A stretch of 64,000 nucleotides of DNA from Tubulanus polymorphus (taxonomy: Eukaryota > Animalia > Nemertea). The position numbers were made by a program, and so were the translations under genes. The stretch lies in assembly GCF_964204645.1 (NCBI RefSeq), contig NC_134026.1:15162150-15226149 (forward strand), read 5' to 3'. Below are positions 1 through 31,470 of this stretch, piece by piece (within the stretch, counting starts at the first letter, position 1; each line of letters begins with the position of its first letter). The notes below the pieces were generated by a model. That model was not told the origin of the DNA. It did no database searches and was given only the letters and a program-made list of their open reading frames with translations.

Positions 1-803
1 ACGAAGCGGTTTTCTTTTCTTTTCCGAACGAACAACTGACAGCTAATAATACAGAATGATGGCCATAGGTGTTAACGAACAAGCTAGTACAGTCTCATAG
101 CTCGTTTCGGTTTTATTTTTCGAATGGACCATACTACGATCCTGAATATAATTATCTTTCACACCGTCCATAATATGCGTGACTTCCAGGGATCGCAAGA
201 ACGACGGCACCATATTGAGAATCACTCTCCAGAACGATTCAGCAGCGGTATAACGGAACAAGCGACCGAACGCTCGACAATCTGCACGAACAGCGAATTG
301 GGCGAAGTCCGAACAACGGCATTCAGATCCAGGATACGGACGATCGCGCTAAGTTGAGGTCACGTAAAGCGAATCCGGCGACTGCAAGTATATGTGAAGA
401 TGGCGACGGCTACGGTCTCACGACGATCTCGAAACAGTACAGTTCATTCCCGATGAGTTCGACTCTGGCCGGAACGAAAGTGACATGGAACAACCCAAAC
501 AAAACTAAGCAATCAAACCCAAAACACTCCCCATGGTTTTGCAGATAAAGATAGCATAGCAATAATATATGAGATTTTCAGTAAATAGATAAGGTACAAT
601 TCACTCCCAATGCTAAACCAAAAGATCCCGATAAATGATAATTATGCAACGATATACGATATAACATACGTTATATAGTTCCAAATGAACGTAATATCTT
701 TTATAAATAATAAAGGAATTTGCAATTTATGACTATAGAACCAAACGAACATAGCAACACGACTACATTCCAAATACGAATAATTTCATAAAATTTCCAA
801 AAC

Positions 804-3425
804 TTAAGGCTGATAAAGTGACAAGTCCGGATAAAGACCTGACCTCCCACCTGGTCTCCCAGCTAAACTAGATGCATCAATATTTCGAATCATGTCTTGA
901 GAATATTGAATCTCATGAGGTATACCTTTATCTTCACTGATCGACAAAGGAACCAAAAGATCGTGATGTTTAACATATATCCGTAAAGTAAATGATGAGC
1001 TCATAATCAATCTTCCAATTCGCCTATATAGAGAAGGCTTGACCGGAATTTTATCCGGAAAATCAATAGCAATTCCATCATACTGAATTTTACAAGGTGT
1101 AACCCAATCAAGATTGATAAATAATTTAAAGAAATGAGAATTACAATGTAGCTTACGTAAAGCAGGGGATCCAAGTAAGGAAATACTGCCCGCACAGGCA
1201 TTAAGATCAATTAATGGAAGTAAGATACATTCATTCCAATCCGAAATCTCTAAAAGTAGTTGTGATTTACAACGTTGAACCATATTACGCCTGCCCCTTA
1301 GAAAGGTAAATAGGTATTTAATATCATAACACAGGAAATGCAACGCACAGTAGATAATAGCCAGAAGAACTATCGTGTCAACTAGAAAATTGGAATCGTC
1401 GTCAATTAGCGATTGAGCAACCCGCGAAGACTGTTCTAAAAATGAAATAGTCCGATTAGACTGTATAACCGTTGCCCCAGCAAGTGGTGCTGCATGAGCT
1501 GCACCCAAGGCTGCAACCGGAAAAATACCCCCTGGATTATACCGTATCATGAAGAAAATATAAACTGACATAGCAAGCGCCGCTATGCTCAGAATAGTAG
1601 GAACCGATATAATGCCTATAGACGATGGAGATGAAAATATATGTCGCAAATTATCTTTAGCTAGTTCATTCTTTAACGCGTCGGCCTTTGAGGCGAACAA
1701 ATCTACATTAGACTTATGCGTTGAAGCCAATTTCTTAAGATCCGTTGAAAATTTAGCGTCCTTTGATGCTACCAAATCCCATGATTCTTTATTCAGTTTT
1801 AAGGGTGGAACCTCAACCATGGGCGCTTTCGATAACTCATTCCCCCTTATCTTTCTCAAATCTGCAGCATTAGAGAACAACGAATGCAGCACAGGTAAAT
1901 TTACTACATGCAAAACAGTTTTATCCTCCTTTCCAATATGACAACCTGTGAGTTTATAAGGGATCCGAAAAGATGACGCAATTATAGAGCAAAAACAAGG
2001 GATTGTCATTACGCACAACCTGCAACCATTGATAGACTTAACCTGTCGGTCAGAACAATGCATAGTCCAAACTTCGTCAGCAGATGACAGTAAATAACGC
2101 CCATCCGCTAATTCATAACTACCTTCAAACAGTAACGCTTCCTCATATCTAATGTCACACAATTTCATTATAGCCTCAGGTTGGTCCCAAAATAGCGCTG
2201 ACGCACACGTTAATTTATGACGGGAATTGAGAGATTTAGTTGTACTACACACTTTAAGGTCTCTACCGTTGCAGGAAAGTAAAAAATCACTATCGAATTC
2301 GGTATAATATTCGTTATCACTTGTAACGGCGATATACTGAGGTAAACCAAAAATTTGAGTCGTATTAGCACTAGTGGCATTCGACGGTACAGGTAATGTA
2401 TCAATATGATAAACATCCATAAAACCAGCCAAACTATGGATGGGAATGGCGATCGTTATATATAAATACGTTTCAGTCTGCGTGAACGTGATATCCCGCA
2501 TTTGATAATAAAAACTAGGCTGACTATGCGTAACCTTAAAACTAGGATAATGATCGCTGAGAATATCCTGTACATTATTAATTACTTTATTGATCTGTTC
2601 AGGACCCACGAGAGAAATAGGCAAAAAGCCATCCAATAATAACTGAGTTGCCTGTAGAAAATTCTCCGACTGGCCAACTACTACCCCAAAACGGTATTGG
2701 TAGTCAACCAAGTTCCTCATTAAAATGGACAAAGCCGAAACTGTGACATTTAAACGATCCAATTTATGAAATATTTCCTTCCGAGAATTTCGGTACTCTA
2801 CAGTCAAAATATTATAAGAATCGGCAAACCTCTTAATTGTTTCATGATTCTCTTTAATGGCCACCATAGCATTATCAAGCCTTTCGTTAGTTGTGTTCAT
2901 GAATGAATGAAGCAACTTGCCGTCTTGTACAACCTGATCAGCCAAGGCTGTTACCCCTGACTCCACTTTGAGGACATGTAACCTAAGTGCGTCCACGTCC
3001 TCTTCAGTAGCCGTGCCAAATAGCGATTTCGCAAAATTCCCTACAAAGTTTAATAAAGCTCTTTTCCCACGACCACTTGCCCTAACAGGAATCAAAGATT
3101 TAACGGTATTCATATTAGCGTTAAGCCGTATTCGTGTTTCTTTAATTTGAGAATTTAATCGCTCAATAATCGTATTTAACATCCCACAACCGTTATACGG
3201 GTGAAAATGATAATGTATAGGGCATGATAGAGGGGTTATAATATCTAGGTCAAATTTAGGCCAGGGAATACAGAAGGTATGCCTATACTTGGAAACACCA
3301 TTAAGAATATTTGTGAACTTATTGAAGACAATTCCCCAATTCAACATAACAACTGAATTCGCCGAAGTGTCAACCGGTTCCAACGTCGTCATGTAAACAG
3401 CCAGTAATAAAATGTAAAGCCTCAT
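804..3425 (-). CDS. env: Envelope glycoprotein, baculovirus-F/errantivirus class I fusion type, with an extra C-terminal membrane module (873 aa)
   Basis: Signal peptide MRLYILLLAV; furin site RGKR (3071-3060) followed by an F-type fusion peptide ALLNFVGNFAKSLFGTATEEDV; heptad region; Cys-rich ectodomain; TM IGIISVPTILSIAALAMSVYIFFMI. The ORF is uninterrupted. Confidence 0.9.
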   Translation of the reverse strand: MRLYILLLAVYMTTLEPVDTSANSVVMLNWGIVFNKFTNILNGVSKYRHTFCIPWPKFDLDIITPLSCPIHYHFHPYNGCGMLNTIIERLNSQIKETRIRLNANMNTVKSLIPVRASGRGKRALLNFVGNFAKSLFGTATEEDVDALRLHVLKVESGVTALADQVVQDGKLLHSFMNTTNERLDNAMVAIKENHETIKRFADSYNILTVEYRNSRKEIFHKLDRLNVTVSALSILMRNLVDYQYRFGVVVGQSENFLQATQLLLDGFLPISLVGPEQINKVINNVQDILSDHYPSFKVTHSQPSFYYQMRDITFTQTETYLYITIAIPIHSLAGFMDVYHIDTLPVPSNATSANTTQIFGLPQYIAVTSDNEYYTEFDSDFLLSCNGRDLKVCSTTKSLNSRHKLTCASALFWDQPEAIMKLCDIRYEEALLFEGSYELADGRYLLSSADEVWTMHCSDRQVKSINGCRLCVMTIPCFCSIIASSFRIPYKLTGCHIGKEDKTVLHVVNLPVLHSLFSNAADLRKIRGNELSKAPMVEVPPLKLNKESWDLVASKDAKFSTDLKKLASTHKSNVDLFASKADALKNELAKDNLRHIFSSPSSIGIISVPTILSIAALAMSVYIFFMIRYNPGGIFPVAALGAAHAAPLAGATVIQSNRTISFLEQSSRVAQSLIDDDSNFLVDTIVLLAIIYCALHFLCYDIKYLFTFLRGRRNMVQRCKSQLLLEISDWNECILLPLIDLNACAGSISLLGSPALRKLHCNSHFFKLFINLDWVTPCKIQYDGIAIDFPDKIPVKPSLYRRIGRLIMSSSFTLRIYVKHHDLLVPLSISEDKGIPHEIQYSQDMIRNIDASSLAGRPGGRSGLYPDLSLYQP

Positions 3426-3477: not shown

Positions 3478-4401
3478 TTATTCCTTTAGTTCCTTCGTTT
3501 TAAAATAGTTCTCAATTAAACTCGGGTTTAATATATTTTCCTCAGGTTCGAAAGTAGACTCGCCTTTCGTATAACCCTCCCACCATATCTTAAAATGGCG
3601 TTTACCATTGATAACTTTATCACCTAAAATCTCTTTAACTATAAAAATGTCATCTGGAATATCAACTAACTCATCTTCCTGATTTGCTAAATCCGATCTT
3701 AAAGGTTCGCCAAAACAAGCGTCTTGATCTCCTATTGGAAGATCGTCCCTGTGAACAAACTTCTTCAACCTATCTGCTGCTATAGGACTTTTCATATATT
3801 TACCAGTTTTAACACATTTGACTCTAAATGTAGAGGGACCTATTGACTTTACAATCTGGAACGGTCCACGATAACGCTTTTGTAACTTCCTAGTCAACCC
3901 TTTCTTAAAATTTGGAAAGAAAACCCAACAGTGGTCCCTAACTTCAAAGTTGACCGGGGTAGCATGTTTATCGCTGATCTTTTTGAATGCAGCTTGTGCC
4001 GTAAGGATCGCACCTTTAGCTATCTTGTAAACATACCGTAATTTATCTTGGGCCAGTCTGACATGTGTGTTTATCTTTAGAGGATTATACATAGGTTCCA
4101 GTAATGCACTATCTAGCGGCGTGTTCGGATGCCTTAAAAACATTAAGTAAAATGGACTATAATTCGATATTGACTTCATTGGACTAGTATTATACGCAAA
4201 GACTGCAGCGCGCAAGTAAGTGGTCCAATCGGTTTGATTATCAGAAATCATCATAGATAATAAGGATTTAATTGACTTGTTCGTAACTTCACAGAGACCA
4301 TTGCATTTAGGATTGAATGAAGCAGTCTTCTTATGTGTAATATTCGAGAATTTAAGTATTTCCTCCACAATCTCACTTAAGAAATTACTTCCGCGATCAC
4401 T
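3478..4401 (-). pseudogene. pol: Integrase C-terminal half with GPF motif and chromodomain (truncated pol)
   Basis: SDRGSNF...NPKCNGLCE (second D and the E of DDE), FAYNTS, SPFYLMF, RYRGPF, then a chromodomain (FIVKEILGDKVINGKRHFKIWWEGY...STFEPEENI). Confidence 0.92.
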
Positions 4402-4600
4402 TAATTTTTTATTCAAATCTATTCAAAATATAAAGTATTCTCTTTTTGAAAAGATATATTAGAATTCTAATAAAATCAAAATTAAAATAATGGCTAGTTA
4501 ATGATATGTAATTTTTAATACTTTCTATTTAAATAAGGATTCAATACCTCACTACTTTTGTCTATCTATTAGGAGCAGTTACTATTACTGTCCAGATAAG

Positions 4601-5156
4601 TCATTTCGGGTTCTCGATATTAATTTCCTCAACGTATTGTTCATTATTTGGATCATTGTTCCATAATTCAACAAATTTCTTTGCTTTATCTAACTGATCT
4701 AAATATAACTGTAAATCTAGTTTATTTCCTTGACTAATATTTTCTACTTTTTCTAAAGGTCTTAGATTCTTCCAATTCCAAATTAGCTTTTTATTGTAAT
4801 CATCATCCATATTAAATTTAGATACAGGCAAAACGTGATCAATATGAAAATAATTACCATAATTATTAATATTCATTTTATCATCGAATTGATATATAAT
4901 CCATGATTTTAAGAATTCATCTGAACAATCCAATAAATTTGTTAGTGTTTCTGAGTGATTATCTTTACTGAAAAATTTTGATACTTTAGATCTTAAACAT
5001 TTTCTCATTTTAAAATTAAAATCTGTTTTATACCTTATAACTTTTATCATCTTTAGAATTCTTATCTTTATTATATTCTGTTAGTGTCTTATATATTTTA
5101 CACTTAGAACATTTCTTATGCGCAATATTTATGGTTTGTGTCAGTTTACTTTCCAT
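4601..5156 (-). pseudogene. Giant-virus (NCLDV)-type HNH endonuclease, frameshifted or internally deleted
   Basis: ATG at 5156 gives MESK...KKCSKCKIYKTLTEYNKDKNSKDDK (zinc-ribbon N-terminus), then a frame change into ORF 5050-4601 with NYGNYFHIDHVLPVSKF...WNWKNLRPLEKVENISQGNK. Intronless and very AT-rich. Confidence 0.7.
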
Positions 5157-5380
5157 TTATATGCAAATGTTTTATTAAAATTGATAAACATGTAATAATC
5201 CTTTTAACAATCTCATTCTCTTTCTCTTCATCCCTTTTAAATTTTAAGTATTAAGTTAAGTTAAGTTAAGTTCATCTAAATTGGTTACTGAATGATTGAT
5301 TACACGTATCACATTTATATATTTCTGTTTCATTCTTTAATTCATCTAATTTAGTTTCTAATATATCATCTTTTTTTTTA

Positions 5381-5922
5381 CTATTACTATTACTATTACT
5401 ACCACTACCTCTACCTCTACCTCTACCTCTACCTCTACCTCTACCTCTACCTCTACCTCTACCTCTACCTCTACCTCTACCTCTACCTCTACCTCTACCT
5501 CTACCTCTACCTCTACCTCTACCTCTACCGCTACCGCTACCGCTACCGCTACCGCTACCGCTACCGCTACCGCTACCGCTACCGCTACCGCTACCGCTAC
5601 CGCTACCGCTACCGCTACCGCTACCGCTACCGCTACCGCTACCGCTACCGCTACCGCTACCGCTACCGCTACCGCTACCGCTACCGCTACCGCTACCGCT
5701 ACCGCTACCGCTACCGCTACCGCTACCGCTACCGCTACCGCTACCGCTACCGCTACCGCTACCGCTACCGCTACCGCTACCGCTACCGCTACCGCTACCG
5801 CTACCGCTACCGCTACCGCTACCGCTACCGCTACCGCTACCGCTACCGCTACCGCTACCGCTACCGCTACCGCTACCGCTACCGCTACCGCTACCGCTAC
5901 CGCTACCGCTGCCGCTACCGCT
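5381..5922. repeat. Compound hexamer microsatellite (CTATTA)n-(CTACCT)n-(CTACCG)n, reading poly(SG)/poly(RG) on the minus strand
   Basis: Directly visible near-perfect tandem arrays. Confidence 0.98.
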
Positions 5923-7197
5923 ATTGAATAAAACATATTCGTTATTGTTCTTATTTACACTTTCATTTTTTCTCAAAAAATGAAGTTGTTGGATAATCTA
6001 CAGTGATCGTGTTTGACGCTTCAAAAATTCGTCATGGAATTTTAATAAAACTACTTTTGATTGATTTTCTGATCTAATCTGGACAGGAAATGTATCAGCC
6101 TAGTGCTAAACGTGGTATCTATAAAAGAATTTGAAATAAACGATTTAATCTAGGGTTGCTTGGTCCTGCAATGACCAGTCAAACGTCTCACAATGACCAT
6201 TTTGAAACGGCTGTTTAGACTGTTATTACTGCTTTTCCGCTTCAACTTTATGAATATATGCGTTCTCGAACGGTCCTAGACCAGATATAAACACACTTTA
6301 GTTGTTGCCAGGCCCCATGGGGTAAAGCACCGGTCACCTAAAAATTGAATATTTTCTATCGATTTATCTTTAAAATTCAGCTACTATCTCGTGCATTTTT
6401 ATTCCCAATCATCGCACATATGCAGAAAGCAACGATTTAGCATGAAATGGTTACAGATAGTGAGGGGATATTATTTTCTATTCCTTGTTGAAAGATCGTT
6501 TTTCAGTCTTTTTGGCCAAATTGAAATATGCACCGTACAGTAGCGCCACTGCTCCCATCGAACGGTCTCCACACTTTCACGTCAGTAGGCCTACCGCCGT
6601 AATATTCTGCAGAATTAATTCTTACTCTTGTTGAATCGAGCTTTTTGGCTGGTGGGTATGAAATGCTTTTCAAAGTTTAATAGGCCTAATGCCTGCCCCT
6701 TTAAGCTTGAGGTCTATGATTTTGCCTGAAAGGTTCATGAGACAATCTGACGCCAAGTATTAGTCAGTGTTGTATTCACGACGACGACGTATTCACTCAT
6801 CATTATCAATATCATCATCACAATGACAATCAATTCAATGCGTTGATGTTTATAATGTTGTAGGCCTATTCAATCGCGACTGATCCAACGACAATCCAAC
6901 AAAGAATAAGCCTACTACAAAACATGAATAGGCTGCTACTAAACAATGCTGCATTGTTAACTCAGCGTTATTAAATTCCGACCTTTTATTTTCAACACAA
7001 AATGAATTTTGTAGGGTGCCCTTACTAGGCCTAGAGGAGTAGAGGCCACAAAATTGACACTTATAGTGTCTATTTCAACTTTAGAGCATATCAAGTGACC
7101 TAGCTCAGTCAGTTTGTTGATGGTACATACCATGATTTGAAAGTTTAACTAAAGTTGAAATGGACATTAGGCCTAGGCCTAATCCTAATCACAAGGC

Positions 7198-7504: not shown

Positions 7505-7808
7505 CACTAGGTTTACCAGATAGGCCAAGGCCTTATTTGGAATTAAGAGGGCACACAATAAAAATGTTAGTTTTTTATCAGTCAGGAATTTTAGAAATGT
7601 TCAGGCGGAATGTTTTTATTTTCTATTTTTGACAATCACGAATAAATGATGTTTCAATTGATTGTCCGCATGCTGCACCTAAATTTTCAACCACCAATCT
7701 TCACAAATTTCAAATAGGCCTACAGCGAGGTTATTTGGTTAAATTTAGGCCTACCAAGGCCCTATTGACATTTTTGAATTCAAACCTCTAATAGAAGATC
7801 GATTCCTG

Positions 7809-9838
7809 TGTAGCGGAAATTCGTTTCACTTCGTTCTGTTCTTTTTATTTTCCAGCTGCAGAGTCCTCCCCAGCTCAGTCTAAAATTCATATTAAATTCC
7901 TATTAAAAGTTTGTATGATGTAAAATAAAACCTTATAATGTATTTGTAACTCTGAGACAAGAATGTTTAATGCTTTGGACTTCGGTCTGGTGGATTAGAA
8001 ACTATTTTTATTTCTATCTTAATGAAATATTGTATGATTTAATCTGAATTCAAAAACTGTACCTAAAGACCTTTTCTATGTGTTCGGGTCACTCCCGGTT
8101 TGTATTTTTCGAGTTAATGTGCCTAAATCGATGTTCCCGTGCTTAAATCGATATTTTTATGCTGTGCTCTGTGCCCGAGATGGCGCCACTATACGGTTCT
8201 TAATTATATTGTGTGCTCGGGGTGCTTTGTTTTAACCAATTAGATGGGGTTACGTCATAATCTGGGCTCTATAAAAGGCAAAAATGTGCTTTATTAATTA
8301 GTCTCGGTGCACATTCTTAGGTGTGTATTACTAAGATTTTGAACTATGGGGGGAGGGATTAATCTAATTTTCTTAGTAAGTCATACTTAGCACTGATTCT
8401 CTTTAAGTATTTCTTGGTCCTTATTCTCAAAGTTGTTTTTCTTCCAAGATGTTTTCGGAAAACAATCTTTCAGGGTTCAAGGAGGTTTTCTCCTTCGAAT
8501 TATTCCCCGAAAGTATTCTTCTTTCCGATTTCCTCTCTTGGTTTTTCCCTCAACTTTTGAGTTTTCGGAGTAGTGACCATCTCTTACATAAACATAATAG
8601 GAAGAATGATTAAATAAATACTTAACTGGAACTATGATTAAATATAGCGAAAATTCTTATCTTTATTAAGAGCACTTAGAGTTACATCTTCTTTAGCGTA
8701 AAACGAGCGCAGGGTTTAAAAGTAACTATTGTTGAGTCGTAATGTTAGAATATCTGAAATCTTTATTCCTAATACTATTGAATTCTGGTGCGATTCGTGC
8801 ACTTGTATTAAGGGCAATATGCCCTTGTTAATCTCCTCCTTTGGTGGCCGGTTGGCCATCTTATCTACCTTAAATGTTGTAAATAAGAGATAACCTATAT
8901 ATATTGTTGTTATATATGTATATATTGTTCATTGTTCGAATATTTCCAAGAAATAATAAATAGTATTCAAGAGAATATTATCATATACATAAAATTCTAA
9001 ATCTTTGCCTTTTTCCCTAAACTATTTTTGTGGTGTCGGATTTACTATCAATTGAGGAAAGGATTTTCTTGTGCATTTTTGGGATTCTGTGACACCATAA
9101 AATATTCTTGAAGAATCTTGTGGGTTGGAGAGTTTAGGGCATCATGTAAGTCTTCAAAAAGGGGAAGCATTGAGGGCACCCTCTAGTGGGAGAGGCCAAA
9201 AATTGGTGAATGCTCCTCGTTTTATTTAGTTGGTATCTATTATTCTTTTTGAAGCTAAACGCCTGATCAGGTCGGCTGTGGAGGCCGGAAATACTTGTAG
9301 CGCTGGACGCAGTCCTGTATTTCCTCCTCAGTCGGAGAGAAAGCTAGGGGATTTTTATTTTATTTGACTCATTCATGATTCTTCTATTAATTCTTTTGGT
9401 CACAGTTTTTCATACATGCACACGCCTTTTTCATGGGTGATTTGTGAGGACATTCAGTCACCCGTGTTACCATTATGACTTATCACTGAGAATTAGGACT
9501 CCTTTAAGTATTCTCACTCACCAGAGGAAGACTTGACATATTTTTGCGCGTTAAATCTCATGGAGGAAAACAAGAGAATTTTCCCCTTCTAGCTTCTCTA
9601 CCTCCCAGATGCTAGTGACATGAGCGAACCCTAGAAGCGACGCCTATATGCAACTTTTTCCTTAAATGTATAGGATTATAGAAAGAGAGAGAGAGAATTA
9701 CCTGTATTCCCTCTTGGTCGAGGAAATTCCGAGAGTTGAGACCTTAGACTTGACATTATGAATTTTAACGGAAACGGAAGTAGATTTTTGTAGTCACTTG
9801 CCAGAGCACGCTACCCCGAATCCCGGTATTCCGCTTCA
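7809..9838 (+). repeat. 5' LTR (2030 bp)
   Basis: Direct repeat of 16153-18168. By eye it differs by about 5 substitutions, one 2-bp indel and one short replacement. Confidence 0.98.
8236..8276 (+). promoter_or_regulatory. Putative LTR Pol II promoter (CCAAT, CRE-like TTACGTCA, TATAAAA)
   Basis: CCAAT 8236-8240, TTACGTCA 8250-8257 and TATAAAA 8270-8276, in canonical order. Also present in the 3' LTR. Confidence 0.6.
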
Positions 9839-9840
9839 AA

Positions 9841-9859
9841 TGGTGGCAGCGGTGGGATT
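9841..9859 (+). promoter_or_regulatory. Primer binding site complementary to tRNA-Leu 3' end
   Basis: TGGTGGCAGCGGTGGGATT lies 2 nt after the LTR and is the reverse complement of AATCCCACCGCTGCCA-CCA of metazoan tRNA-Leu(AAG/TAG). Confidence 0.9.
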
Positions 9860-10138
9860 TTCTTCGATATAAGCACATACGTGCATTATTACTATTTTTT
9901 TTTATCGATACGTTGTAGAGGTTTAGCCTCCCTTGGTGAGTGAGTCTCCGTAGAGTAATATAATCCGACACCCTCCCTTTTCTCTTATCATTTGAACTAC
10001 ATTAAACTATAACGGTTAGGTCAGGAAGTTTAGTTAGGTAGAAACCACAGCAGAGTTTGTTTATCGTTTTTCCGTGATAAAACTTTCTTTCATTCTTTTC
10101 ATAGCGTATTTGTATGTGAGTCTTTCGTGTGAATAAGA

Positions 10139-11110
10139 ATGAGTCGTCCGGCTACCCGCTCCATAACTAGATCTCTTGATAGAAGTAGAAGTGCTGAAGA
10201 TATTCGCCATTTAGCCGAAGCCAGGGATGAACCGGGTATACAGAGTCTGTCTAGGGGTGACGGACCTCGTGTTAATTCCTCGGCGATGGATGTAGTATGT
10301 CCAAATGTTTCCTCCGAGGCCTACAATTATAAAATGAAACCTGAAAGTTATAATGGTGATACTAGCTGGTCTGATTACCGGTTAAGTTTTGAGACCGTTT
10401 CTCGTATTAACTCGTGGCCTGATCATGCAAAAGCCGATTATCTTTTTGCTTCACTTCGGGGTGCAGCTAGACAGTTGGTCTGTGCAAAACTTTCCTCAGG
10501 TGAAGCACTTAATTACTTTGAGATGTGCAAAGTTCTTGAATCAAGGTTCGGCAAAGGTGCCCATTCTCAGACCTATTTGGCTGAGCTCAAGAATCGCCGC
10601 CGTAAAAGACATGAATCCTTGAGAGAGTTGGGTCAATCTATTCTTGTTTCATGTGCACTTGCGTACCCAGATTTTCCGGGGGACCAACGCGAACAGATGG
10701 CGCATATGCATTTTATTGAAGCTTTAGAGGATAAGGAAATGAGATTAAAACTGTGGCAAACCAACTACCAAAGCTTGGACGAGCTTATTAGTTTCGCTCT
10801 ACGAATAGAGGGTATTCAGCTTATGGAAAATGAGCGGGAGGATAGATCCAATATTCCTCTTTATCAGGTTCGCTCTTCCGAGGCTGCTAGAAATGAGATT
10901 ACGCGCCTGCGTCAGGATTTTGAGAGGCTTAACGCTAATATCAGTAAAGTCGTGTCGCAACAAAATGACTATCCTGAGTACAGGTTCAAGCAGTGTTATC
11001 GATGTTTAAGATATGGCCATTTAGCGCACCATTGTAGGAACCCCCCTTCTTCTCATCCTCATAGAGAGAGTTTAAACGAGAAGCGGCTGGTCCAACAGGG
11101 GAAAGATTAG
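10139..11110 (+). CDS. gag: Gag (capsid plus CCHC zinc knuckle), 323 aa
   Basis: KPESYNGDTSWSDY...L.G.A capsid motif and zinc knuckle CYRCLRYGHLAHHC. Confidence 0.95.
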   Translation: MSRPATRSITRSLDRSRSAEDIRHLAEARDEPGIQSLSRGDGPRVNSSAMDVVCPNVSSEAYNYKMKPESYNGDTSWSDYRLSFETVSRINSWPDHAKADYLFASLRGAARQLVCAKLSSGEALNYFEMCKVLESRFGKGAHSQTYLAELKNRRRKRHESLRELGQSILVSCALAYPDFPGDQREQMAHMHFIEALEDKEMRLKLWQTNYQSLDELISFALRIEGIQLMENEREDRSNIPLYQVRSSEAARNEITRLRQDFERLNANISKVVSQQNDYPEYRFKQCYRCLRYGHLAHHCRNPPSSHPHRESLNEKRLVQQGKD

Positions 11111-11130
11111 CTGACTTTGGTGTGTCCCCT
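11071..11130 (+). promoter_or_regulatory. -1 ribosomal frameshift signal (U UUA AAC plus predicted pseudoknot)
   Basis: Heptamer TTTAAAC 11071-11077 is in X XXY YYZ register of gag. The -1 frame is open from there into pol. Stem cggctggtc/gattagctg has a loop agggga that can pair with tcccct. Confidence 0.8.
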
Positions 11131-14100
11131 TCAAAAGTAGTTCCTTCGGTTAAATCGGATATCAACTTACCTAGTTCCATGTATATTCCTGCCTCGATTT
11201 GGGGAGTTCAGGTCAAATACCTTGTAGATACTGGAGCTCACGTAACTATTCTTAGCCGTCATGTCTATTCTAAACTTAGAGACAAAATTAAACTATGTAA
11301 TTCTAGTGTAAATTTAAGAGCAGCTGATAATCTTCCAATCAAGGTTTTAGGATCTGCCGTCATACCTATAGGTTTATTCGACTCCAGTATCACCTGGGAA
11401 GTCGTCGTGGCGGACATCAAAGATGACGCCATTCTCGGAATGGATTTCTTGTCAGCATATGACTGTCATCTTCACCCTAGGCATCAGACAATCACGTGCC
11501 AGGGTCATCAGATCAGTGTTGAAAATTCTCCTTCTAATCCTGTGTTAGTAAGAAGTAAAGATAAAATCAAGGTTCCCCCTCTAACGGAGGTAATCATTCC
11601 TTGTTATAAGAGAGGTTCTCATTCATTGGCCAAATGGGCTATTGTTGAATCTAATCATAATTGGAAATTAGGTATTGATCTTTGTGTAGCTCGGAGCATA
11701 ATTGATACTGATTGTGAAGCGATCCCCGTCAGGGTGGTCAATTTAAGTGATTCTTCACGTATCATTTATCAGAATTCCCCTCTCGCTATCCTCTCAGGAG
11801 TAAGAGCTGTATGGTCTGAATCCGATTCAGTGTCTAAGGTAGAAAGTACTTACCCGGAGAGTCTCAAGGATAAAAATCAAGCGGAGCCCGATCACCTCAA
11901 AGATCTTATAAAACGTAGTTGCGAAGGGTTGGATCCGATACAGTCCAATCAAGTTAAGAAACTGATTTTGAAATACTCCGATGTATTCGCTAAATCTGAC
12001 TTGGATTTGGGAGAAGCCATGGGGGTTGAACACACTATTGACACGGGACATCTTCCGCCTATTAAACAGAAAGTTCGGCGGGTCCCTCAGGCTAAGCAAC
12101 CTGAATTGAATTCATTATTAGGTAAAATGCAACAATCTAACGTGATTGAAAAGAGCAATTCTGGCTGGAATTCCAGTATCGTACTAGTCACCAAGCCAGA
12201 CGGTTCGCTCCGATTGGTTAATGATTTCCGAGATTTAAACCAACACACGGTTGCCGATGCCTATCCATTACCTAGAATAGACGATACTATCCGATCTATG
12301 TCGGGTGCTGTTTTCTTTTGTCAAGCCGACCTACAGAGCGGCTATTGGCAAGTTAAATTATCAGAGAATGACCGTGGGAAGACTGCATTTGCTACCCCTC
12401 ATGGGTTTTATCAATATCGTAAACTACCTATGGGATTGAAAAATTCTGCCGCTACTTTTGAGAGACTTATGGAAAGAGTTCTCGAGGGTCTTTTGAATGA
12501 CATTGTTTTAGTTTATTTAGATGACATCATTGTTTATGGGCGTGATTTTGAGACCATGTTGACTAACCTTGAGAAAGTTTTTATTCGTCTTCGTTCAGCT
12601 AATTTGAAACTCAAGCCCAAAAAGTGTAATTTCTTCCGTCGTAGAGTTCAATTCCTTGGTCATGTTGTTTCTGACAAAGGTGTCTCCTGTTCGGAAGAGA
12701 AAATCAAAGCTATTAAAGATTGGGTTAGACCCTCTACTCAAACCGAGACTAGACAATTCCTCGGTTTGGCTAGCTATTATAGGGCATTTTGTCCTAATTT
12801 TGCTTCCATAGCTAAGCCACTTCATTCCTTGACTGAGAAGTACAAGGTGTTCCTGTGGACTGAGGAGTGTGAGACTTCTTTCCTTAAACTTAAGGAGATG
12901 TTAATAACAGCGCCGGTACTAGCTTTTCCTGACCCTAAGCTTCCGTATATTCTGGACACGGATGCCAGTGGCTGGGGTATAGGTGGCGTTTTGTCTCAAC
13001 TGGACGAATCCGGTCGTGAGTGAGTCATTTTCTATGGCAGTAGAACCTTGAGTAAAACTGAGAGAAACTATTGTGTTACGCGTCGAGAGTTACTAGCTGT
13101 GGTCGTTTTTGTGAAATTCTTCCGATATTATCTGGAAGGTCATAAGTTCACGGTCCGCACCGATCACTCCTCCCTCCGCTGGATGATGAACTTCAAAGAA
13201 CCCGACGGGCAAACTGCCCGATGGCTGTCTCTCCTTTCGAGTTTCGAATTCGATATCGTACACCGTGAAGGGCGTAAGCACACTAACTGTGACGCTCTTT
13301 CTCGCACTAATTGTCCGCAGTGCCAGCGTATGGAAAGTAAATGCTCCGGTAGTAACGAGAAGCCAATCAAACTCAAAGATCTCAGGGTCAATGCAATTTC
13401 TCCTGATACACTTCCTGAGGCTGAGTCCCATGTGGCTAAATTTCTTCCCTCTGATGAGTGGGAGCCACAAAATTTGGCTCAAGCACAGCGTGCCGACCCT
13501 GAGTTTGGATGGATCTTTGATTACATTTATAGTGACTCTCGTCCGGCCTGGTCCGAGATTTCTGCTCTTAGTCCTGCAGCCAAGTTCTATTGGGCTCTGT
13601 GGAATTCCATCACAGTAATTGATGGTGTTTTGCATATAACTAAGAAGAGAGAGGGATTCCCTGACTCTGTACTTACTCTTTTACCTCTCCAATATAGAAA
13701 AAGTGTGTTCGAAAATATTCATTCCTCTGTAACATCCGCACATTTAGGTATTCGAAAGACTACATTCAGTATGCACCGACGTTTCTTCTGGCATTCTATT
13801 TTGTCAGACATTAAATCTTTCTGTCGTTGCTGTGAAGATTGTCAAGCTAGAAAGTCGTTATCTGAAAAGAGGCCCAAAGCAAAACTGATGTTATACAATG
13901 TAGGTGCTCCTCTTGAGAGAGTAGGAATCGATATCTTAGGTCCGTTACCTGAGTCCAGATCTGGTAATAGCTATATTGTGGTGGTTTGTGACTATTTCAC
14001 AAAGTGGGCGGAAGCCTACCCTATTCCCAATCAAGAAGCCGAAACAGTGGCTGAGCAGCTTGTTACGAATTTCATTAGTCGATTTGGTGTCCCTAGATCC

Positions 14101-14895
14101 TTGCATTCGGATCGCGGACAAAACTTTCTTTCCAAGTTGATGACAGAGTTATGTGCCATTTTACACATTCGCAAGACCAACACTACTCCTTATAGACCCT
14201 CTTCTAATGGTCTCGTCGAGAGATTTAACAAGACGCTAGCTCAGAGTTTGAGAACTCGTGTGAATGAGAAACAGGATGACTGGGATGAGCACTTACATTT
14301 CATTACTATGGCTTTTCGAGCTACAGTACATGATGTGACCGGATTCTCACCCAATTTTCTCATGTTCGGACGTGAAGTCGATATGCCGGTGGACCTTATA
14401 TCTGGCCGTCCAGCGAACCAGGTGGCTTTTCCGTTTACTCAGTATGTAGCTGAAATGAAGCGCGAGATAGAATCTGCATTTGAGATTGTCCGAATTAATA
14501 TAGGAAAGAGAGGAAAGAGAAATAAACGGAACTACGACTTACTTAGATCTGGGGGGAAATACAGTGTCGGGGATCAGGTATGGCTATTCCGTCCTGCTGT
14601 AGCGGTCGGCTGTAGTAGAAAGCTTTCGTCTTTCTGGAAGGGTCCATTCCCCGTCATCGAAGTAATTAATGACGTGGTATACAGGCTGTCGGTTCAGGGA
14701 AAGTCCGTAACAGCTCATTTTGATCGTCTCAAGCCGTATCATGCTGGTAACGTTTGTCCTCCTGAAATTAGAGACAAGAAAATGAGTGAAAGTAATTTTA
14801 GAAATTCTGACTTAACCCAGTCGGTGTATGATTCGTCAGATCCAGTTGTAACACGTTCGGGACGTCACATTAAGCGACCATCTCGATACAGTTGA
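11071..14895 (+). pseudogene. pol: Pol polyprotein (protease, RT, RNase H, integrase) with a single in-frame TGA at 13021-13023
   Basis: LVDTGA, YLDD, TDAS, H-H-C-C, DILGP/SDRG/ERFN and KGPF motifs. ORFs 11122-13023 and 13048-14895 share a frame. GAG TGA GTC sits where E-R-V is expected, consistent with CGA>TGA. Confidence 0.95.
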
Positions 14896-15199
14896 GATCT
14901 CTTTGTTGTTGTCTGTAAGGGTTAACCTTAGCGTTCCTAAGGGCCTGTTGGGTGCAGTGATAACTTGTACTAATCATTGAATATGTATACATAGTAGTAA
15001 TTAATCTTAAAAATTTTTCTGCTGTGGGTTTCTTATCTTTCTTGCGGTAATCTCGTGAGATGTAACTCGTTTATAGAGATGTATTCCTTCCTCCTTCTCT
15101 TGGAGGGGGTTTAAAACTATTCTCCACCCTTTTTCTGGCTAGGATGCCACCTTATATACTCACTGACAAGTGGGTTCAATTCGGGTGAAGTTACTTAAG

Positions 15200-15200
<1 letters not shown>

Positions 15201-15237
<37 letters not shown>
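15201..15237. repeat. (TA)n microsatellite just upstream of the ORF3 acceptor
   Basis: Visible TA run. Confidence 0.95.
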
Positions 15238-15240
<3 letters not shown>

Positions 15241-15276
15241 CTTTGTTTTCTCTTTTTCTATACATTTTCAGTGAAT

Positions 15277-16086
15277 ATGGACGCCCAGGACAAGTGGACG
15301 TGTCACGACTGCGGTCTTAGGCTTAGTAACACGTACAGGAAGTCGCGCCACCAGGTGTCTTGCACCTGGAAGCTTTTCGGTCGCAAAACGTATCCGGCCG
15401 GCACGGTATTTTCATGCCTTATGTGTGGATTTAGTAATCCGAAAGTGGCGAGGGTAATAACTCACATATCAAAATCGCATCGCGACCGCGTAAGAAGGAA
15501 CGGCAATACTTATGTCGGTTTGATTCGTTCGTGTGTGCCGGAGGGAGTGCCTCGGACGGTTTTCCCGGGCCTCCCTACCGCTAGTTTTGTGTCCGACGTC
15601 GGACTGGATGAGACTGGAGAATCATCGGTGTCGGAACTCCCGAAGAAGTTCCCGTTTTTTTCGTTACCGCCGCCGCCTCCTCCGCCGCCGTATTCACCGC
15701 CTCCGCCGCCTAGTTCGCCGCCTCCGCCTATCGAAACGCCTACATTGTTCGATTGTTTGAACATTCCGCTTCCAGGACAACCTGCGCTGTGCAGTTTTGA
15801 TGTATCGACGGAAATCATTCTTGACGGCATTGAGGAACCTGCAAACTCATCCTTACTCATGCGAACATCTACACCCGTACCAGCTGAAGACGCGGTTCCC
15901 GTGGAGATCAACCCTGCAGTACTTTCCGAACCTTCGTGCGCTGTCGGTAATTCTCCGGTCTCCAAGCAATGTGGCGCTGTTCGGCATGTTCACGATTTTC
16001 GCGGACACCACCTCGAGATATCGGTCCCGGTTGGAGTCCCGATTAACTGCCCGTTGTGTCTTCACCTGGTCAAATCTTTTGAATAA
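15277..16086 (+). CDS. Accessory ORF3 of the Gypsy element: two zinc-finger-like motifs, polyproline with PPPY, C-terminal HxH/CxxC motif
   Basis: Acceptor ctttgttttctctttttctatacattttcAG (ending 15271) precedes ATG 15277. Motifs CHDC-x12-H-x3-C, CLMC-x12-H-x4-H, PPPPPPPPYSPPPPP and HVH...CPLC. Stop lies 66 bp before the 3' LTR. Confidence 0.75.
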   Translation: MDAQDKWTCHDCGLRLSNTYRKSRHQVSCTWKLFGRKTYPAGTVFSCLMCGFSNPKVARVITHISKSHRDRVRRNGNTYVGLIRSCVPEGVPRTVFPGLPTASFVSDVGLDETGESSVSELPKKFPFFSLPPPPPPPPYSPPPPPSSPPPPIETPTLFDCLNIPLPGQPALCSFDVSTEIILDGIEEPANSSLLMRTSTPVPAEDAVPVEINPAVLSEPSCAVGNSPVSKQCGAVRHVHDFRGHHLEISVPVGVPINCPLCLHLVKSFE

Positions 16087-16134
16087 CCTTATATATATAC
16101 TTTACCTTTGTCGCCTTTTCTGAGCGGGTCGCTC

Positions 16135-16152
16135 AGGGCTGGTGGGGGGCTT
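16135..16152 (+). promoter_or_regulatory. Polypurine-tract-like plus-strand primer site
   Basis: G-rich agggctggtggggggc immediately before the 3' LTR TG. Confidence 0.65.
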
Positions 16153-18168
16153 TGTAGCGGAAATTCGTTTCACTTCGTTCTGTTCTTTTTATTTTCCAGC
16201 TGCAGAGTCCTCCCCAGCTCAGTCTAAAATTCATATTAAATTCCTATTAAAAGTTTGTATGATGTAAAATAAAACCTTATAATGTATTTGTAACTCTGAG
16301 ACAAGAATGTTTAATGCTTTGGACTTCGGTCTGGTGGATTAGAAACTATTTTTATTTCTATCTTAATGAAATATTGTATGATTTAATCTGAATTCAAAAA
16401 CTGTACCTAAAGACCTTTTCTATGTGTTCGGGTCACTCCCGGTTTGTATTTTTCGAGTTAATGTGCCTAAATCGATGTTCCCGTGCTTAAATCGATATTT
16501 TTATGCTGTGCTCTGTGCCCGAGATGGCGCCACTATACGGCTCTTAATTATATTGTGTGCTCGGGGTGCTTTGTTTTAACCAATTAGATGGGGTTACGTC
16601 ATAATCTGGGCTCTATAAAAGGCAAAAATGTGCTTTATTAATTAGTCTCGGTGCACATTCTTAGGTGTGTATTACTAAGATTTTGAACTATGGGGGGAGG
16701 GATTAATCTAATTTTCTTAGTAAGTCATACTTAGCACTGATTCTCTTTAAGTATTTCTTGGTCCTTATTCTCAAAGTTGTTTTTCTTCCAAGATGTTTTC
16801 GGAAAACAATCTTTCAGGGTTCAAGGAGGTTTTCTCCTTCGAATTATTCCCCGAAAGTATTCTTCTTTCCGATTTCCTCTCTTGGTTTTTCCCTCAACTT
16901 TTGAGTTTTCGGAGTAGTGACCATCTCTTACATAAACATAATAGGAAGAATGATTAAATAAATACTTAACTGGAACTATGATTAAATATAGCGAAAATTC
17001 TTATCTTTATTAAGAGCACTTAGAGTTACATCTTCTTTAGCGTAAAACGAGCGCAGGGTTTAAGTAACTATTGTTGAGTCGTAATTTTAGAATATCTGAA
17101 ATCTTTATTCCTAATACTATTGAATTCTGGTGCGATTCGTGCACTTGTATTAAGGGCAATATGCCCTTGTTAATCTCCTCCTTTGGTGGCCGGTTGGCCA
17201 TCTTATCTACCTTAAATGTTGTAAATAAGAGATAACCTCGAGGTTGTGTATATATTGTTCATTGTTCGAATATTTCCAAGAAATAATAAATAGTATTCAA
17301 GAGAATATTATCATATACATAAAATTCTAAATCTTTGCCTTTTTCCCTAAACTATTTTTGTGGTGTCGGATTTACTATCAATTGAGGAAAGGATTTTCTT
17401 GTGCATTTTTGGGATTCTGTGACACCATAAAATATTCTTGAAGAATCTTGTGGGTTGGAGAGTTTAGGGCATCATGTAAGTCTTCAAAAAGGGGAAGCAT
17501 TGAGGGCACCCTCTAGTGGGAGAGGCCAAAAATTGGTGAATGCTCCTCGTTTTATTTAGTTGGTATCTATTATTCTTTTTGAAGCTAAACGCCTGATCAG
17601 GTCGGCTGTGGAGGCCGGAAATACTTGTAGCGCTGGACGCAGTCCTGTATTTCCTCCTCAGTCGGAGAGAAAGCTAGGGGATTTTTATTTTATTTGACTC
17701 ATTCATGATTCTTCTATTAATTCTTTTGGTCACAGTTTTTCATACATGCACACGCCTTTTTCATGGGTGATTTGTGAGGACATTCAGTCACCCGTGTTAC
17801 CATTATGACTTATCACTGAGAATTAGGACTCCTTTAAGTATTCTCACTCACCAGAGGAAGACTTGACATATTTTTGCGCGTTAAATCTCATGGAGGAAAA
17901 CAAGAGAATTTTCCCCTTCTAGCTTCTCTACCTCCCAGATGCTAGTGACGTGAGCGAACCCTAGAAGCGACGCCTATATGCAACTTTTTCCTTAAATGTA
18001 TAGGATTATAGAAAGAGAGAGAGAGAGTTACCTGTATTCCCTCTTGGTCGAGGAAATTCCGAGAGTTGAGACCTTAGACTTGACATTATGAGTTTTAACG
18101 GAAACGGAAGTAGATTTTTGTAGTCACTTGCCAGAGCACGCTACCCCGAATCCCGGTATTCCGCTTCA
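16153..18168 (+). repeat. 3' LTR (2016 bp)
   Basis: Direct repeat of 7809-9838, followed by TSD CCTG. Confidence 0.98.
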
Positions 18169-26246: not shown

Positions 26247-26660
26247 TACGGAAGCGATAAGGGGCCTCGAGATGACGCGTTCCAACTCGACAAGTCGCCA
26301 TATTATTGTCGACTTGACGCGATATATCGCGTCAAGTCGACATGAATGTCGATATATCGTGACGTTTTGACGACATATTTCGTTTTCTCAACCATTTTCC
26401 TCGCGACAAGTCGACATATTCATGACGACTTGAAACTCAGTCGTCATATTACTGGCGTCCTCATCTTACATTTAGACATGTCTTCAAATGACGGCTTGTC
26501 CCGTGGAAAATGAGCAAATAAGCGAAATTTGTCGTGAAAACGTCACGATATGTAGACATATTCATGTGGACTTGACACGATATATCGCGATATATCGACA
26601 TAAATATGGCGACTTGTCGAGTTTGAACGCGACAACTCGAGGCCCTTTATCGCTTCCGTA
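26247..26660. mobile_element. MITE (414 bp) with TIR TACGGAAGCGATAA(G/A)GGGCCTC and 7-bp TSD CTATATC; partial second copy at 26015-26149
   Basis: Long inverted arms. ctatatc occurs at 26240-26246 and 26661-26667. The element is absent from the other family-2 HINE copy. Confidence 0.85.
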
Positions 26661-26749
26661 CTATATCAGATTAATCGACTTAAATAGGCGAAAGCATAAG
26701 TCTTTATTACGTTATTAATTGGCCTAATTATTCAAAAGCTAATAATGTA

Positions 26750-29090
26750 GGCGACAAAACCAAAAAAATTAATTGTCGCGGGCGATAAAACCAAAATAAT
26801 CAATTGTCGCGGGCGATAAAACCAAAATAATCAATTGTCGCTGGCGATAAAACCAAAATATTCAACTGTCGCGGGCGACAAAACCAAAAAAATGAATTGT
26901 CGCGGGGGATAAATCCAAAATAATGAATTGTCGCGGGCGACAAATCCAAAATCATGAATTGTCGCGGGTGACAAAAACAAAATATTCAATTGTCGCAGGC
27001 GACAAAACCAAACTAATGAATTGTCGCGGGCGATAAAACCAAAATAATGAATTGTCGCAGGCGATAAAACCAAAATATTGAAGTGTCGCAGGCAATAAAA
27101 CCAAATTAATGAATTGTCGCGGGCGATAAAACCAAAATAATGAATTGTCGCCGGCGATAAAACCAAAATATTGAATTGTCGTGGGCGACAAAACCAAAAT
27201 ATTGTTTTGTCGCGGGTGACAAAACCAAATTAATGAATCGTCGAGGGCGATAAAACCAAAATAATGAATTGTCGCGGGCGATAAAACCAAAATAATGAAT
27301 TGTCGCTGGCGATAAAACCAAAATATTGAATTGTCGCGGGCGACAAATCCAAAATCATGAATTGTCGCAGGCGACAAAAACAAAATATTCAATTGTCGCG
27401 GGCGACAAAACCAAACTAATGAATTGTCGCGGGCGATAAAACCAAAATAATGAATTGTCGCAGGCGATAAAACCAAAATATTGAAGTGTCGCAGGCGATA
27501 AAACCGCGACAAAAAGAAAAAAAATTGTCGCGGGCGATAAAACCAAAATAATGAATTGTCGCGGGCGATAAAACCAAAATATTGAATTGTCGTGGGCGAC
27601 AAAACCAAAATATTGTTTTGTCGCGGGTGACAAAACCAAATTAATGAATTGTCGCGGGCGATAAAACCAAAATAATCAATTGTCGCGGGCGATAAAACCA
27701 AAATAATGAATTGTCGCTGGCGATAAAACCAAAATATTGAATTGTCGCGGGCGACAAATCCAAAATCATGAATTGTCGCGGGCGACAAAAACAAAATATT
27801 CAATTGTCGCGGGCGACAAAACCAAACTAATGAATTGTCGCGGGCGATAAAACCAAAATAATGAATTGTCGCAGGCGATAAAACCAAAATATTGAAGTGT
27901 CGCAGGCGATAAAACCGCGACAAAAAGAAAAAAAAATTGTCGCGGGCGATAAAACAAAAATCTTGAATTGTCGCTATTGTCGCGTGCGACAAAACCAAAA
28001 TAATGAATTGTCGCGGGCGATAAAACCAAAATAATGAATTGTCGCGGGCGATAAAACCAAAATATTGAATTGTCGAGGGCGACAAAACCAAAATATTGTT
28101 TTGTCGTGGGTGATAAAACCAAATTTATGAATTGTCCCGGGCGATAAAACCAAAATAATGAATTGTCGCTGGCGATAAAACCAAAATATTGAATTGTCGC
28201 GGGCGACAAATCCAAAATCATGAATTGTCGCGGGCGACAAAAACAAAATATTCAATTGTCGCGGGCGACAAAACCAAACTAATGAATTGTCGCTGGCAAT
28301 AAAACCAAAATAATGAATTGTCGCAGGCAATAAAACCAAAATAATGAATTGTCGCAGGCGATAAAACCAAAATATTGAAGTGTCGCAGGCGATAAAACCG
28401 CGACAAAAAGAAAAAAAAATTGTCGCGGGCGATTAAACCAAAATAATGAATTGTCGCGGGCGATAAAACCAAATATTGAATTGTCGTGGGCGACAAATCC
28501 AAAAAATGAATTGTCGCGGGCGATAAAACCAAAATCTTGAATTGTCGCTATTGTCGCGTGCGACAAAACCAAAATAATGAATTGTCGCGGGCGATAAAAC
28601 CAAAATAATGAATTGTCGCGGGCGATAAAACCAAAATATTGAATTGTCGAGGGCGACAAAACCAAAATATTGTTTTGTCGTGGGTGATAAAACCAAATTA
28701 ATGAATTGTCCCGGGCGATTAAAAACAAAATAATGAATTGTCGTGGGCGACAAAACCAAAATATTGTTTTGTCGCGGGTGACAAAACCAAATTAATGAAT
28801 TGTCGCGGGCGATAAAACCAAAATAATGAATTGTCGCGGGCGATAAAACCAAAATAATAAATTGTCGCTGGCGATAAAACCAAAATATTGAATTGTCGTG
28901 GGCGACAAATCCAAAAGATGAATTGTCGCGGCAGAAAAACCAAAATCTTGAATTGTCGCGGGTGACAAAACCAAATTAATGAATTGTCGCGGGCGATGAA
29001 ACCAAAATAATGAATTGTCGCGGGCGATAAAACCAAAATAATGAATTGTCGCGGGCGACTAAAACCAAAATTATTGATTTGTCGCGTTAT
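26750..29090. repeat. 31-bp minisatellite AATTGTCGCGGGCGA(T/C)AAAACCAAAATAATG with higher-order blocks
   Basis: Visible array. Variant units recur at ~400-450 bp spacing (e.g. ~26937, ~27340, ~27751, ~28203). Confidence 0.97.
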
Positions 29091-31470
29091 TTTAGTTTTG
29101 TCGTTTTGTCATAATGTCGCCCTCATTTGCATATACGTGTTTTTTTTACGCATGGCCCTTATCAGCCACCATACTAAAGCCTTAAGGTCGCGTATCGAGT
29201 TTTACGGTAAAACTCGATAAACACTTCAAGCGACACAGCGAACGATCTCCTTTCCCCCACAGCGAAAGCTTAACCTAGTAGAGGCTACTAGCCTATGTAG
29301 GCCTATGTATATGCGTAGGCCTAACATCCGGACAGATTGGTCTTAGGCCTATTGAATTTAACAACTCACCTAAATATCTTTTTTTTAAATAATTAATTTT
29401 GTTTTGAAGTTCAATCCAATGAGTCCGTTAATAAACGCAACAATTGTACTGTGTTTGTTTGATACAGTAAAGCTCAGTACCGGTAGGCCTTAAGCCGCGT
29501 CAAACTCGATAAACACTTCAAGCGACACAGCGAACGATCCCTTTCCCCACAGCGAACGCTTACTCCGAATGTCAAGTGTGAGTCCAGCATACGGAAAGGA
29601 TTGTGTTATATACTTGTATTTAGTAAATACCTTGTGGATTTGACAATGATCGGTATGTACTGTAGGAAATAGGCCTATAGAGTATTGATAAATGGTTGAA
29701 GCCCGCGGCCGAATAAAGTAATATATTCTTTTATTTTGATACCTCGTCGACATAACAGCTTTTCTCCGCCATATCTCTTCGGCCTGTTTAGTTTAGGCCT
29801 ACGATTCCCCGGTACACTAAAGATTTATCTTAGTAAATACACGGTTAATTCGGTAAAGAAAAATTGGTATTGTTAAACGAACTCCTTGAAACCCGCAGCC
29901 AAATCACTGGTAGTAATAAATTAATTTGTCCTCGATTTGATTCTCATGATGAGGAGAAACTCGCAGCTCATCCCCGGAACGTCGATGTAGTAACACACGT
30001 CGATTCGTCGATGTTTACGGCTCGACAGTGCTTTTAAAATCTAAAGTAGTAAATTTCCAGTGTATCGGTAATATGATTTGATGAGGAAAATGGGCTATTG
30101 TAAAAATCACTGTTTGAAGACCGCGACTGAATTTGAAGTCTGCACCAATAAATTAGTTCATTTATACTTGAATTGATAATCGAAGTGACAGTCGGCCTGC
30201 GGGTTGATTTCGGGATGATGACTCGAAAAACATGTCGCCCCATTGAATGGGGCTAAATTTTCGATGTTTACGGCCCGACAGCGCTTTCGTAACGATGATT
30301 CGTGAAAAAACACGCGGGCTATTTGTAGATCTCAGTAAGCTGAACGATATTATATGGATTGTATATGAAACAGCGGTAAGGTAACAAAGCCTATGTTCTT
30401 TTGGTAAAAATAGTGTGGAAGAAAATAATAATAATAATAATCACGCGGATATCAATAGGGTTTTCTGTGAAATAACAGAAAACCCTAATTATGTATAATT
30501 TGAATATATTTATATTTTATAACAACAATCACTTGCAAAATTGTAGCTCATGACATGCTCTATGATTGTGCTGAATTAATGTTATTGGTTATTGTATATG
30601 GTCACCAGGGGGCGTTGATTGGGTTAATTACTTATTATTTCAATATTACATCGGTACCTAAGGCATATTTTGTTACCACAATCAATTGCAAAATTGTAGC
30701 TCATGACATGTTCTATACATTTGGTTTCAGGGTCATTGGTTTTTTATAGTCACCAGAGGTCGTTGAATAGCCGAATAACTTAGTGTTTCCTTATTACATT
30801 GGTATCGATACATATTTTGTTACCGCAATCAATTGCACAATTGTAGCTCATTGTGTTTGGTTTCTGTATGTGTTCACCAGGGGGTTAATATTGAAAATGT
30901 CAGATTGTTGTGCATTTCAAATCACTTCCAAGTGGGTATGGTATCCCTAGACCCCTAGTTCTCATTTATTGATACCTATCAATTGTTCTGTTTTATTCAA
31001 ATCTTAGTATCAACTTTGGAAAACGATAGACAAAAGCTAAAGGTAAAATCTTTAAGTCAATTGCTTTATAATAATGTTTTATCCCATCACCTCAACTGTC
31101 TAGGATTCCTATACATTAATTCTATGTTACTAGCCTTCTGTAAAGAATTTCTGATGCATTTACAAATTATCCAAACGTATTTTCTTTAAAAATTCAGTAC
31201 TGTATCAATTCCAATAAAGGTGCTTTTATACATAAAGCGCCCCTAGGAAATTTCAGTTTAAAAACTTACTGAAAAGGTGTCTCAGAAAATGAAAATTGTT
31301 TAACTTATTAAATGTGAAATGTGAATATCAATTATTTAGAAGAGTGAGGATAATGGAATGTTACATCGAAACCAACAAAATGATGTGCTTGATGGTGGTG
31401 GTGAAGATGGTCGTGCTGGCTGGTGGTGATGATGGTCCTGGTGTTGATTTTGGTTGTAGAGATGGGTGTG

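Follow-up and report, generated by a model that had tools for sequence, protein, structure and literature searches.

How is an envelope gene to be read when its single frame runs on for 246 aa beyond the transmembrane segment anchoring the fusion protein? The question is raised by an env ORF near one end of the window, the stretch of 64,000 nucleotides of the Tubulanus polymorphus genome analysed here, which has ~37% GC, is rich in repeats and is eukaryotic in look. Our preferred answer, to which we assign a probability of about 0.6, is that one frame joins an F-type fusogen, what is likely an internal signal peptide, another membrane anchor, a predicted cytosolic, matrix-like domain and a likely ALIX-binding LYPDL motif, and that the product is cleaved and drives budding. 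The sequence anatomy of this gene and the conservation of its layout throughout the family are observed directly; the features are listed in the table below.

Table. Features of the env-carrying element in the window (nucleotide positions of the window; aa, residues of the env product)
Feature	Position	Strand	Content or basis
env ORF	804..3425	-	873 aa: F-type fusogen, putative internal signal, TM2, matrix-like domain and tail
Predicted N-terminal signal peptide, aa 1-~22	3360..3425	-	hydrophobic aa 3-15
Furin-type site RGKR (aa 119-122) and fusion peptide (aa 123-~140)	3006..3071	-	sequence
TM1, F anchor, aa 603-627	1545..1619	-	hydropathy
Short basic loop and internal signal-peptide-like segment ending AHA/A, aa 628-645	1491..1544	-	-3/-1 site conservation
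Predicted luminal spacer, aa 646-679, with sequon NRT (aa 657-659, 1449-1457)	1389..1490	-	sequence
TM2, aa 680-698	1332..1388	-	Kyte-Doolittle 2.31
Predicted beta-sandwich domain on the cytosolic side, similar to matrix proteins of Mononegavirales, aa 714-833, core ~718-826	927..1286	-	
LYPDL, putative ALIX-binding late domain, aa 864-868 in variable tail aa 834-873	822..836	-	sequence
Gypsy pol C-terminal part: integrase C-terminus, SH3, chromodomain (3499-3645)	3478..4405	-	Pfam
3' non-coding region	1..803	-	purine run 10-25, possible polypurine tract

The ORF immediately 5' of env (3478-4254, minus strand) matches the Pfam families Chromo (E 5.7e-9), SH3_Tf2-1 and Integrase_p58_C, and 53 nt separate this end of pol, with its integrase C-terminus, SH3 domain and chromodomain, from the start of env. 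The copy is broken at 4405 and lacks RT and gag; other copies run on with different sequence, and reads and contigs mapped to the element have loose ends at this point. The sequence that breaks it, 4406-5950, is high-copy, and an HNH_4-like ORF (4601-5050, minus strand, Pfam E 0.007) adjoins a long hexamer microsatellite. No 3' LTR of the env element was found inside the 64-kb window. Raw reads of a second study cover the element at a depth of 28-87, multi-copy up to position 1, against 1.9-6.9 in a nearby region (10 lowest of 30 bins), which indicates roughly 10-15 related copies. Small deletions in the env tail occur in a minority of these raw reads, so that some copies must have decayed. 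Contigs of three other runs, which represent two samples of one study that is possibly the source of the window itself, span 730-1719, 473-1702 and 589-1694, differing from the window by 2-3 substitutions and by no gap. Since they run gap-free from TM1 to the tail, the env architecture is not an assembly artefact.

The remainder of the window includes a second Gypsy element, without env (7806-18168, plus strand), whose ~2.0-kb LTRs are 98.9% identical. It has gag (10139-11110), pol as two ORFs (11179-13023 and 13183-14895) and, 5' of the 3' LTR, a further frame (15199-16086) that combines zinc-finger-like Cys/His patterns with a stretch rich in proline. Two frames, 58901-60375 and 62452-62841, resemble by eye fragments of a hAT-type transposase. 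A 31-bp satellite forms two arrays in opposite orientation (26638-29100 and 43300-45060), and a 954-bp inverted repeat pair (29539-30492 and 42002-42955) is 99% complementary.

The ectodomain of the env product is of a familiar kind. Residues 85-427 match Pfam Baculo_F (E 5.7e-11), and the env profile retrieves from the PDB the "fusion protein" entries 9w4d (E 4e-16) and 9w4c (E 1e-14). The pattern KR-x-LL-x-F-x-G...LFGTAT is invariant in all six sequences of the furin site and fusion peptide alignment, and TM1 was found in each of the 17 sequences that cover it. Two marks of an errantivirus are present, an env directly 3' of Gypsy pol and an F-type ectodomain with signal peptide, furin site, fusion peptide and TM; judged on these, the element fits an F-type errantivirus (env-carrying Ty3/Gypsy) of the "ancient" kind.

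What follows TM1 is shared with many relatives. A full-length protein search returned five and a profile search one more, and a word-indexed search with the tail region alone returned none. The same tail is present in four of these six (P0002-P0005; the source of P0002 is the scallop Argopecten irradians) and absent in two. A metagenome scan gave 17 loci, comprising 12 with the domain, one short-tailed F-Env (L015) and four that stop short of the tail; one GTDB contig also carries the domain. HMMER with aa 642-873 added four proteins (E 4e-9 to 9e-4), whose best stretches stop before the late motif, while a search of viral contigs gave no match. With near-duplicates (L007, L009, L011 and cluster-mates of P0002 and P0005) excluded from the counts, 19 domain sequences remain. 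The 14 that were tabulated share 9-46% pairwise identity with each other and 9-22% with the present copy. Wherever DNA context exists env lies 3' of Gypsy pol, and L004 and L008 preserve the complete gag-pol-env order. The short-tailed F-Envs P0006, P0007 and L015 show no match to the domain profile. On these sequence comparisons the extended Env tail is a trait of the element family.

Several of these relatives call for comment in their own right. Gene models mis-annotate P0002, P0008 and P0005: the scallop models join gag to env, and the P0005 model lacks the internal-signal and spacer stretch that its cluster-mates P0012 and P0015 retain. Locus L010 (3657-6617) encodes a 987-aa Env whose TM2 and domain are the same but whose N-terminal part is longer; its tail of 68 aa contains Cys and lacks LYPxL. 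The env-carrying Gypsy element on the GTDB contig (L018, 1-9314) comes from a genome labelled Sedimenticola and is most likely host DNA within that bin.

A sequence-only reading of the locus had proposed that the post-TM1 part releases a second membrane protein. Its placement of the ORF, TM1, RYNP (aa 628-631), the second hydrophobic stretch with an A-x-A site (GGIFPVAALGAAHA, aa 632-645), NRT, TM2, RGRR (aa 710-713) and LYPDL was correct throughout. In the 17 covering sequences the order after TM1 is a pair of basic residues, a short run of hydrophobic ones and then a polar stretch, and a small-residue -3/-1 site lies exactly 20 residues past the anchor in 14, the remaining three having it at 19 (this copy), 21 and 22. 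The best -3/-1 position in 5000 shuffles had a mean of 6.3 and a maximum of 11, a comparison in which the anchors were picked by eye on the alignment and the sequences, being related, are not independent. The proposed internal cleavage site is thus conserved in position among homologues. The signal-peptidase pattern (basic n-, hydrophobic h- and polar c-region, small -3/-1) is present by the rule-based scoring used for topology and cleavage. In this copy the h-region is weak: the second hydrophobic stretch, with a best 11-mer Kyte-Doolittle value of 1.83, is the weakest element and too polar for a full TM. A transmembrane segment, short loop and signal in series also separate the envelope proteins in flavivirus and hepacivirus polyproteins.

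The spacer measures 30-46 aa (anchor+15 to TM2) in all 16 sequences with both anchors, seven of which have a sequon, and its LPSF-like motif is conserved. Net charge is zero or negative before TM2 and +1 to +5 after it in 19/19 sequences. Such a positive-inside pattern corresponds to a luminal spacer and a cytosolic C-terminus, and the charge bias agrees with the cytosolic side assigned to the C-terminal domain by the sequence-only reading.

That reading had also described a domain of ~150 aa with a budding or matrix function. A folded domain is indeed predicted, although it is smaller, ~110-120 aa (aa ~718-826), and the rest is a variable tail of ~40 aa. The suggested function receives independent support from structure searches, in which the best whole-domain matches are viral matrix proteins, several of them independent, with middling scores; the Mononegavirales matrix matches span 93-100 of the 120 aa. 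The domain likely shares the matrix fold of negative-strand RNA viruses, as far as predicted structures can tell. Single-sequence folding gave a pLDDT of 36.6. Pfam searches with the tail alignment placed this copy in no family and gave scattered single-member matches elsewhere; the best, bCoV_NS8 (E 0.0016), involved one member of ten and was dismissed as chance. The tail profile matched no PDB sequence at E <= 10, one ESM Atlas query yielded no usable match, and every stretch of the tail alignment was too variable for a pattern scan. A coronavirus M/ORF3a-like fold, considered for the three-TM-plus-beta layout, was absent among the matches listed in the structure searches. An sORF2/FAST-like identity was dropped, those proteins being described in PMC11952523 as small separate ORFs that are often myristoylated. 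As it lies outside all Pfam families, the domain constitutes a new family and deserves annotation whatever its function.

The late motif was named before any homologue had been examined. Chance expectation in the tail of this copy is 0.06 for YPxL and 0.008 for LYPxL, so that the motif is weak in a single protein and is lifted above chance by its conservation in homologues. Of 18 other tails, six carry LYPxL (P0004, P0019, P0021, L001, L008 and L014; that of L001 is an identical LYPDL), seven LYPx[L/I] and eight LYP, against means of 0.07, 0.11 and 0.61 and maxima of 2, 3 and 5 in 5000 shuffles. The expected conservation of YPxL therefore holds far above chance (YPx[L/I] in 7/18), though for a minority of sequences. 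The consensus recurs in a predicted cytosolic, poorly conserved segment, near the C-terminus and past a linker that otherwise cannot be aligned. It is optional: among the 11 homologues without LYPx[L/I], four have <=7 aa past the domain, six have 13-68 aa there but no LYP, and the last has LYP but lacks the closing L/I. LYP carriers are scattered over the domain tree (19 rows) and the ectodomain tree (14 rows), both poorly resolved. In five Gags of related elements (the gag portion of a fused gene model supplies the fifth) the region before the capsid is short and of low complexity and lacks Gly2; one of the five contains YPxL and none PTAP or PPxY.

These features can be assembled into a mechanism. 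Signal peptidase would cut co-translationally after AHA, giving F and a type I membrane protein of ~228 aa in a 1:1 ratio. F would be held by TM1 plus the signal helix, nearly without a cytosolic tail. Beneath the F spikes the matrix-like domain may line and bend the inner membrane and capture the Gag capsid, the pre-capsid region of Gag looking unstructured and lacking a Gly2 myristoylation site. In lineages that have it, LYPx[L/I] would bring in ALIX and ESCRT-III to carry out scission, for which the other lineages would take a different route.

Other readings accept some of this and differ at particular steps. Env might stay uncleaved, as a three-pass membrane protein of the same topology and fold with the matrix-like domain as a covalent cytosolic tail. 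The cleavage score is rule-based, and the conserved spacer and LPSF-like motif could be structural; even so, a -3/-1 site at fixed distance in 14/17 divergent sequences suits a cleaved signal better, as does an h-region that is not long or hydrophobic enough to form a stable TM, and we hold an uncleaved Env to be quite improbable. A different topology would follow if the second hydrophobic stretch did not cross the membrane, since TM2 would then run in-to-out and the domain would lie in the lumen or outside the cell and act as an accessory, for instance in receptor binding. The weak h-region of this copy, several cysteines and a mild excess of sequons within the domain (21 observed against 13.8 +/- 3.4 expected) point that way. 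The sequon positions vary, however, and eight of 19 domains, including this one, have no sequon; the uniform charge bias across TM2 and a terminal LYPxL that would be of no use in the lumen further reduce this topology to a very slim chance.

The function of the second protein is a separate matter. The domain could be a beta-sandwich adaptor with no relation to matrix proteins, with the second protein assisting F in trafficking or as a chaperone subunit and LYPxL sending that protein to endosomes rather than driving budding, either by ALIX-dependent sorting into multivesicular bodies or as an adaptor signal of the YxxΦ kind. We consider this unlikely: several independent matrix proteins lead the whole-domain structural matches, and all seven LYPx[L/I] carriers keep the L before and the P after Y, both of which are dispensable in a YxxΦ signal. 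Finally, the break at 4405 and the tail deletions in minority reads could hint at chance read-through or an assembly fusion in one decayed copy, to which we give practically no credence: the three contigs cross the junction and the identical in-frame layout recurs across many divergent elements.

The preferred reading, a cleaved Env that drives budding, concerns an architecture that is real, conserved and apparently undescribed, within a known class of elements. No description of a retroelement Env with a second TM, a matrix-like domain or YPxL was found in a literature search that reached few subscription journals; passages of PMC11952523, PMC12440569, PMC8220671 and bioRxiv 2024.12.15.628590 and 2024.11.25.625296 hold nothing on an Env of this kind. 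For most env-carrying Gypsy elements the mechanism of transmission is still described as elusive (PMC13524379). If true, our reading would supply a concrete budding machine for those outside insects, and matrix and late-domain function would shift from gag to env. A reverse-transcribing element would then hold a fold so far solved from Mononegavirales only.

A wider proposal, to which we give slightly less than even odds, is that a widespread invertebrate Gypsy clade and negative-strand RNA viruses share a fusogen-plus-matrix cassette: a class-I F together with a membrane-anchored homologue of Borna M/VP40 equipped with an ESCRT late domain. Long Aliusviridae glycoproteins would conceal the same cassette. 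On this view the elements would have a retroviral core yet bud by means of a matrix of mononegavirus type, and part of the history of the M fold, so far unrecognised, would lie in an F polyprotein that passed between Ortervirales and Monjiviricetes and from which signal peptidase released it. If true, the main reading also bears on the origin of F-type env, which may have been captured along with, or out of, a cassette of negative-strand RNA viruses instead of coming from baculoviruses, and it predicts a hidden matrix protein in Aliusviridae glycoproteins.

Among the closest known systems are the ancient F-type errantiviruses described by Chary and Hayashi (eLife 2026, PMC13524379), which share with the present element the pol-env order, the furin site and fusion peptide of the F-type ectodomain, the chromodomain after integrase and the presence of multiple copies in the host. 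Their chromodomain clade is reported from Cnidaria, Mollusca and Annelida. That analysis covers the part of Env lying between signal peptide and TM, the ectodomain; the terms matrix, budding, ESCRT, tail, polyprotein, endodomain, cytoplasmic and late domain do not occur in the main text, which does not describe the second TM, the domain or LYPxL either. The Env-F of Drosophila errantiviruses and baculovirus F have in common with this Env the Baculo_F match, signal peptide, furin site, fusion peptide and TM; Drosophila Env-F is described with one TM and a cytoplasmic tail (PMC12992720).

Among Mononegavirales matrix proteins, Borna M, filovirus VP40 and paramyxo- and pneumovirus M resemble the predicted domain over its whole length. 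Borna M is likewise a single domain, and VP40 and rhabdovirus M similarly have a late motif adjoining the domain. These, however, are soluble peripheral-membrane proteins encoded by a separate gene, whereas the domain described here is in frame with env and behind a TM in 19/19 sequences, and we therefore class it as working like a matrix rather than as a member of the matrix proteins. A structurally similar domain also appears in the glycoproteins of Aliusviridae (Jingchuvirales), class-I fusogens mostly longer than 1100 aa (PMC12583693): a BFVD structure search gave seven rows (probability 0.90-0.99, TMq 0.43-0.54, E 0.03-0.17). Aliusviridae are negative-strand RNA viruses, unlike the element, and each row names the matching glycoprotein rather than a place within it, so that an F-plus-matrix layout there is only a suggestion. 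These rows suggest an unannotated matrix protein within the G ORF of the long glycoproteins, a part absent from the Viro3D description of them as long class-I fusogens (PMC12583693). Carboviruses have the gene order G-M (PMC5834213), which offers a suggestion of how an F/G-M cassette might originate.

The EIAV p9 motif YPDL, which binds ALIX, and LYPXnL of HIV-1 p6 are the same motif as that proposed here, but they lie in Gag, whereas the putative motif of the element ends env (PMC8402826). Foamy virus Env may be likened to that of the element in having a second stable membrane subunit, a Gag without membrane-targeting signals and Env-released subviral particles (PMC7828637). Its leader peptide differs in being N-terminal, type II and furin-cleaved, and the same source places the late domain in Gag and describes no matrix-type fold. 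By analogy, foamy viruses are a functional precedent for Env-dependent budding, achieved by a different part of the protein.
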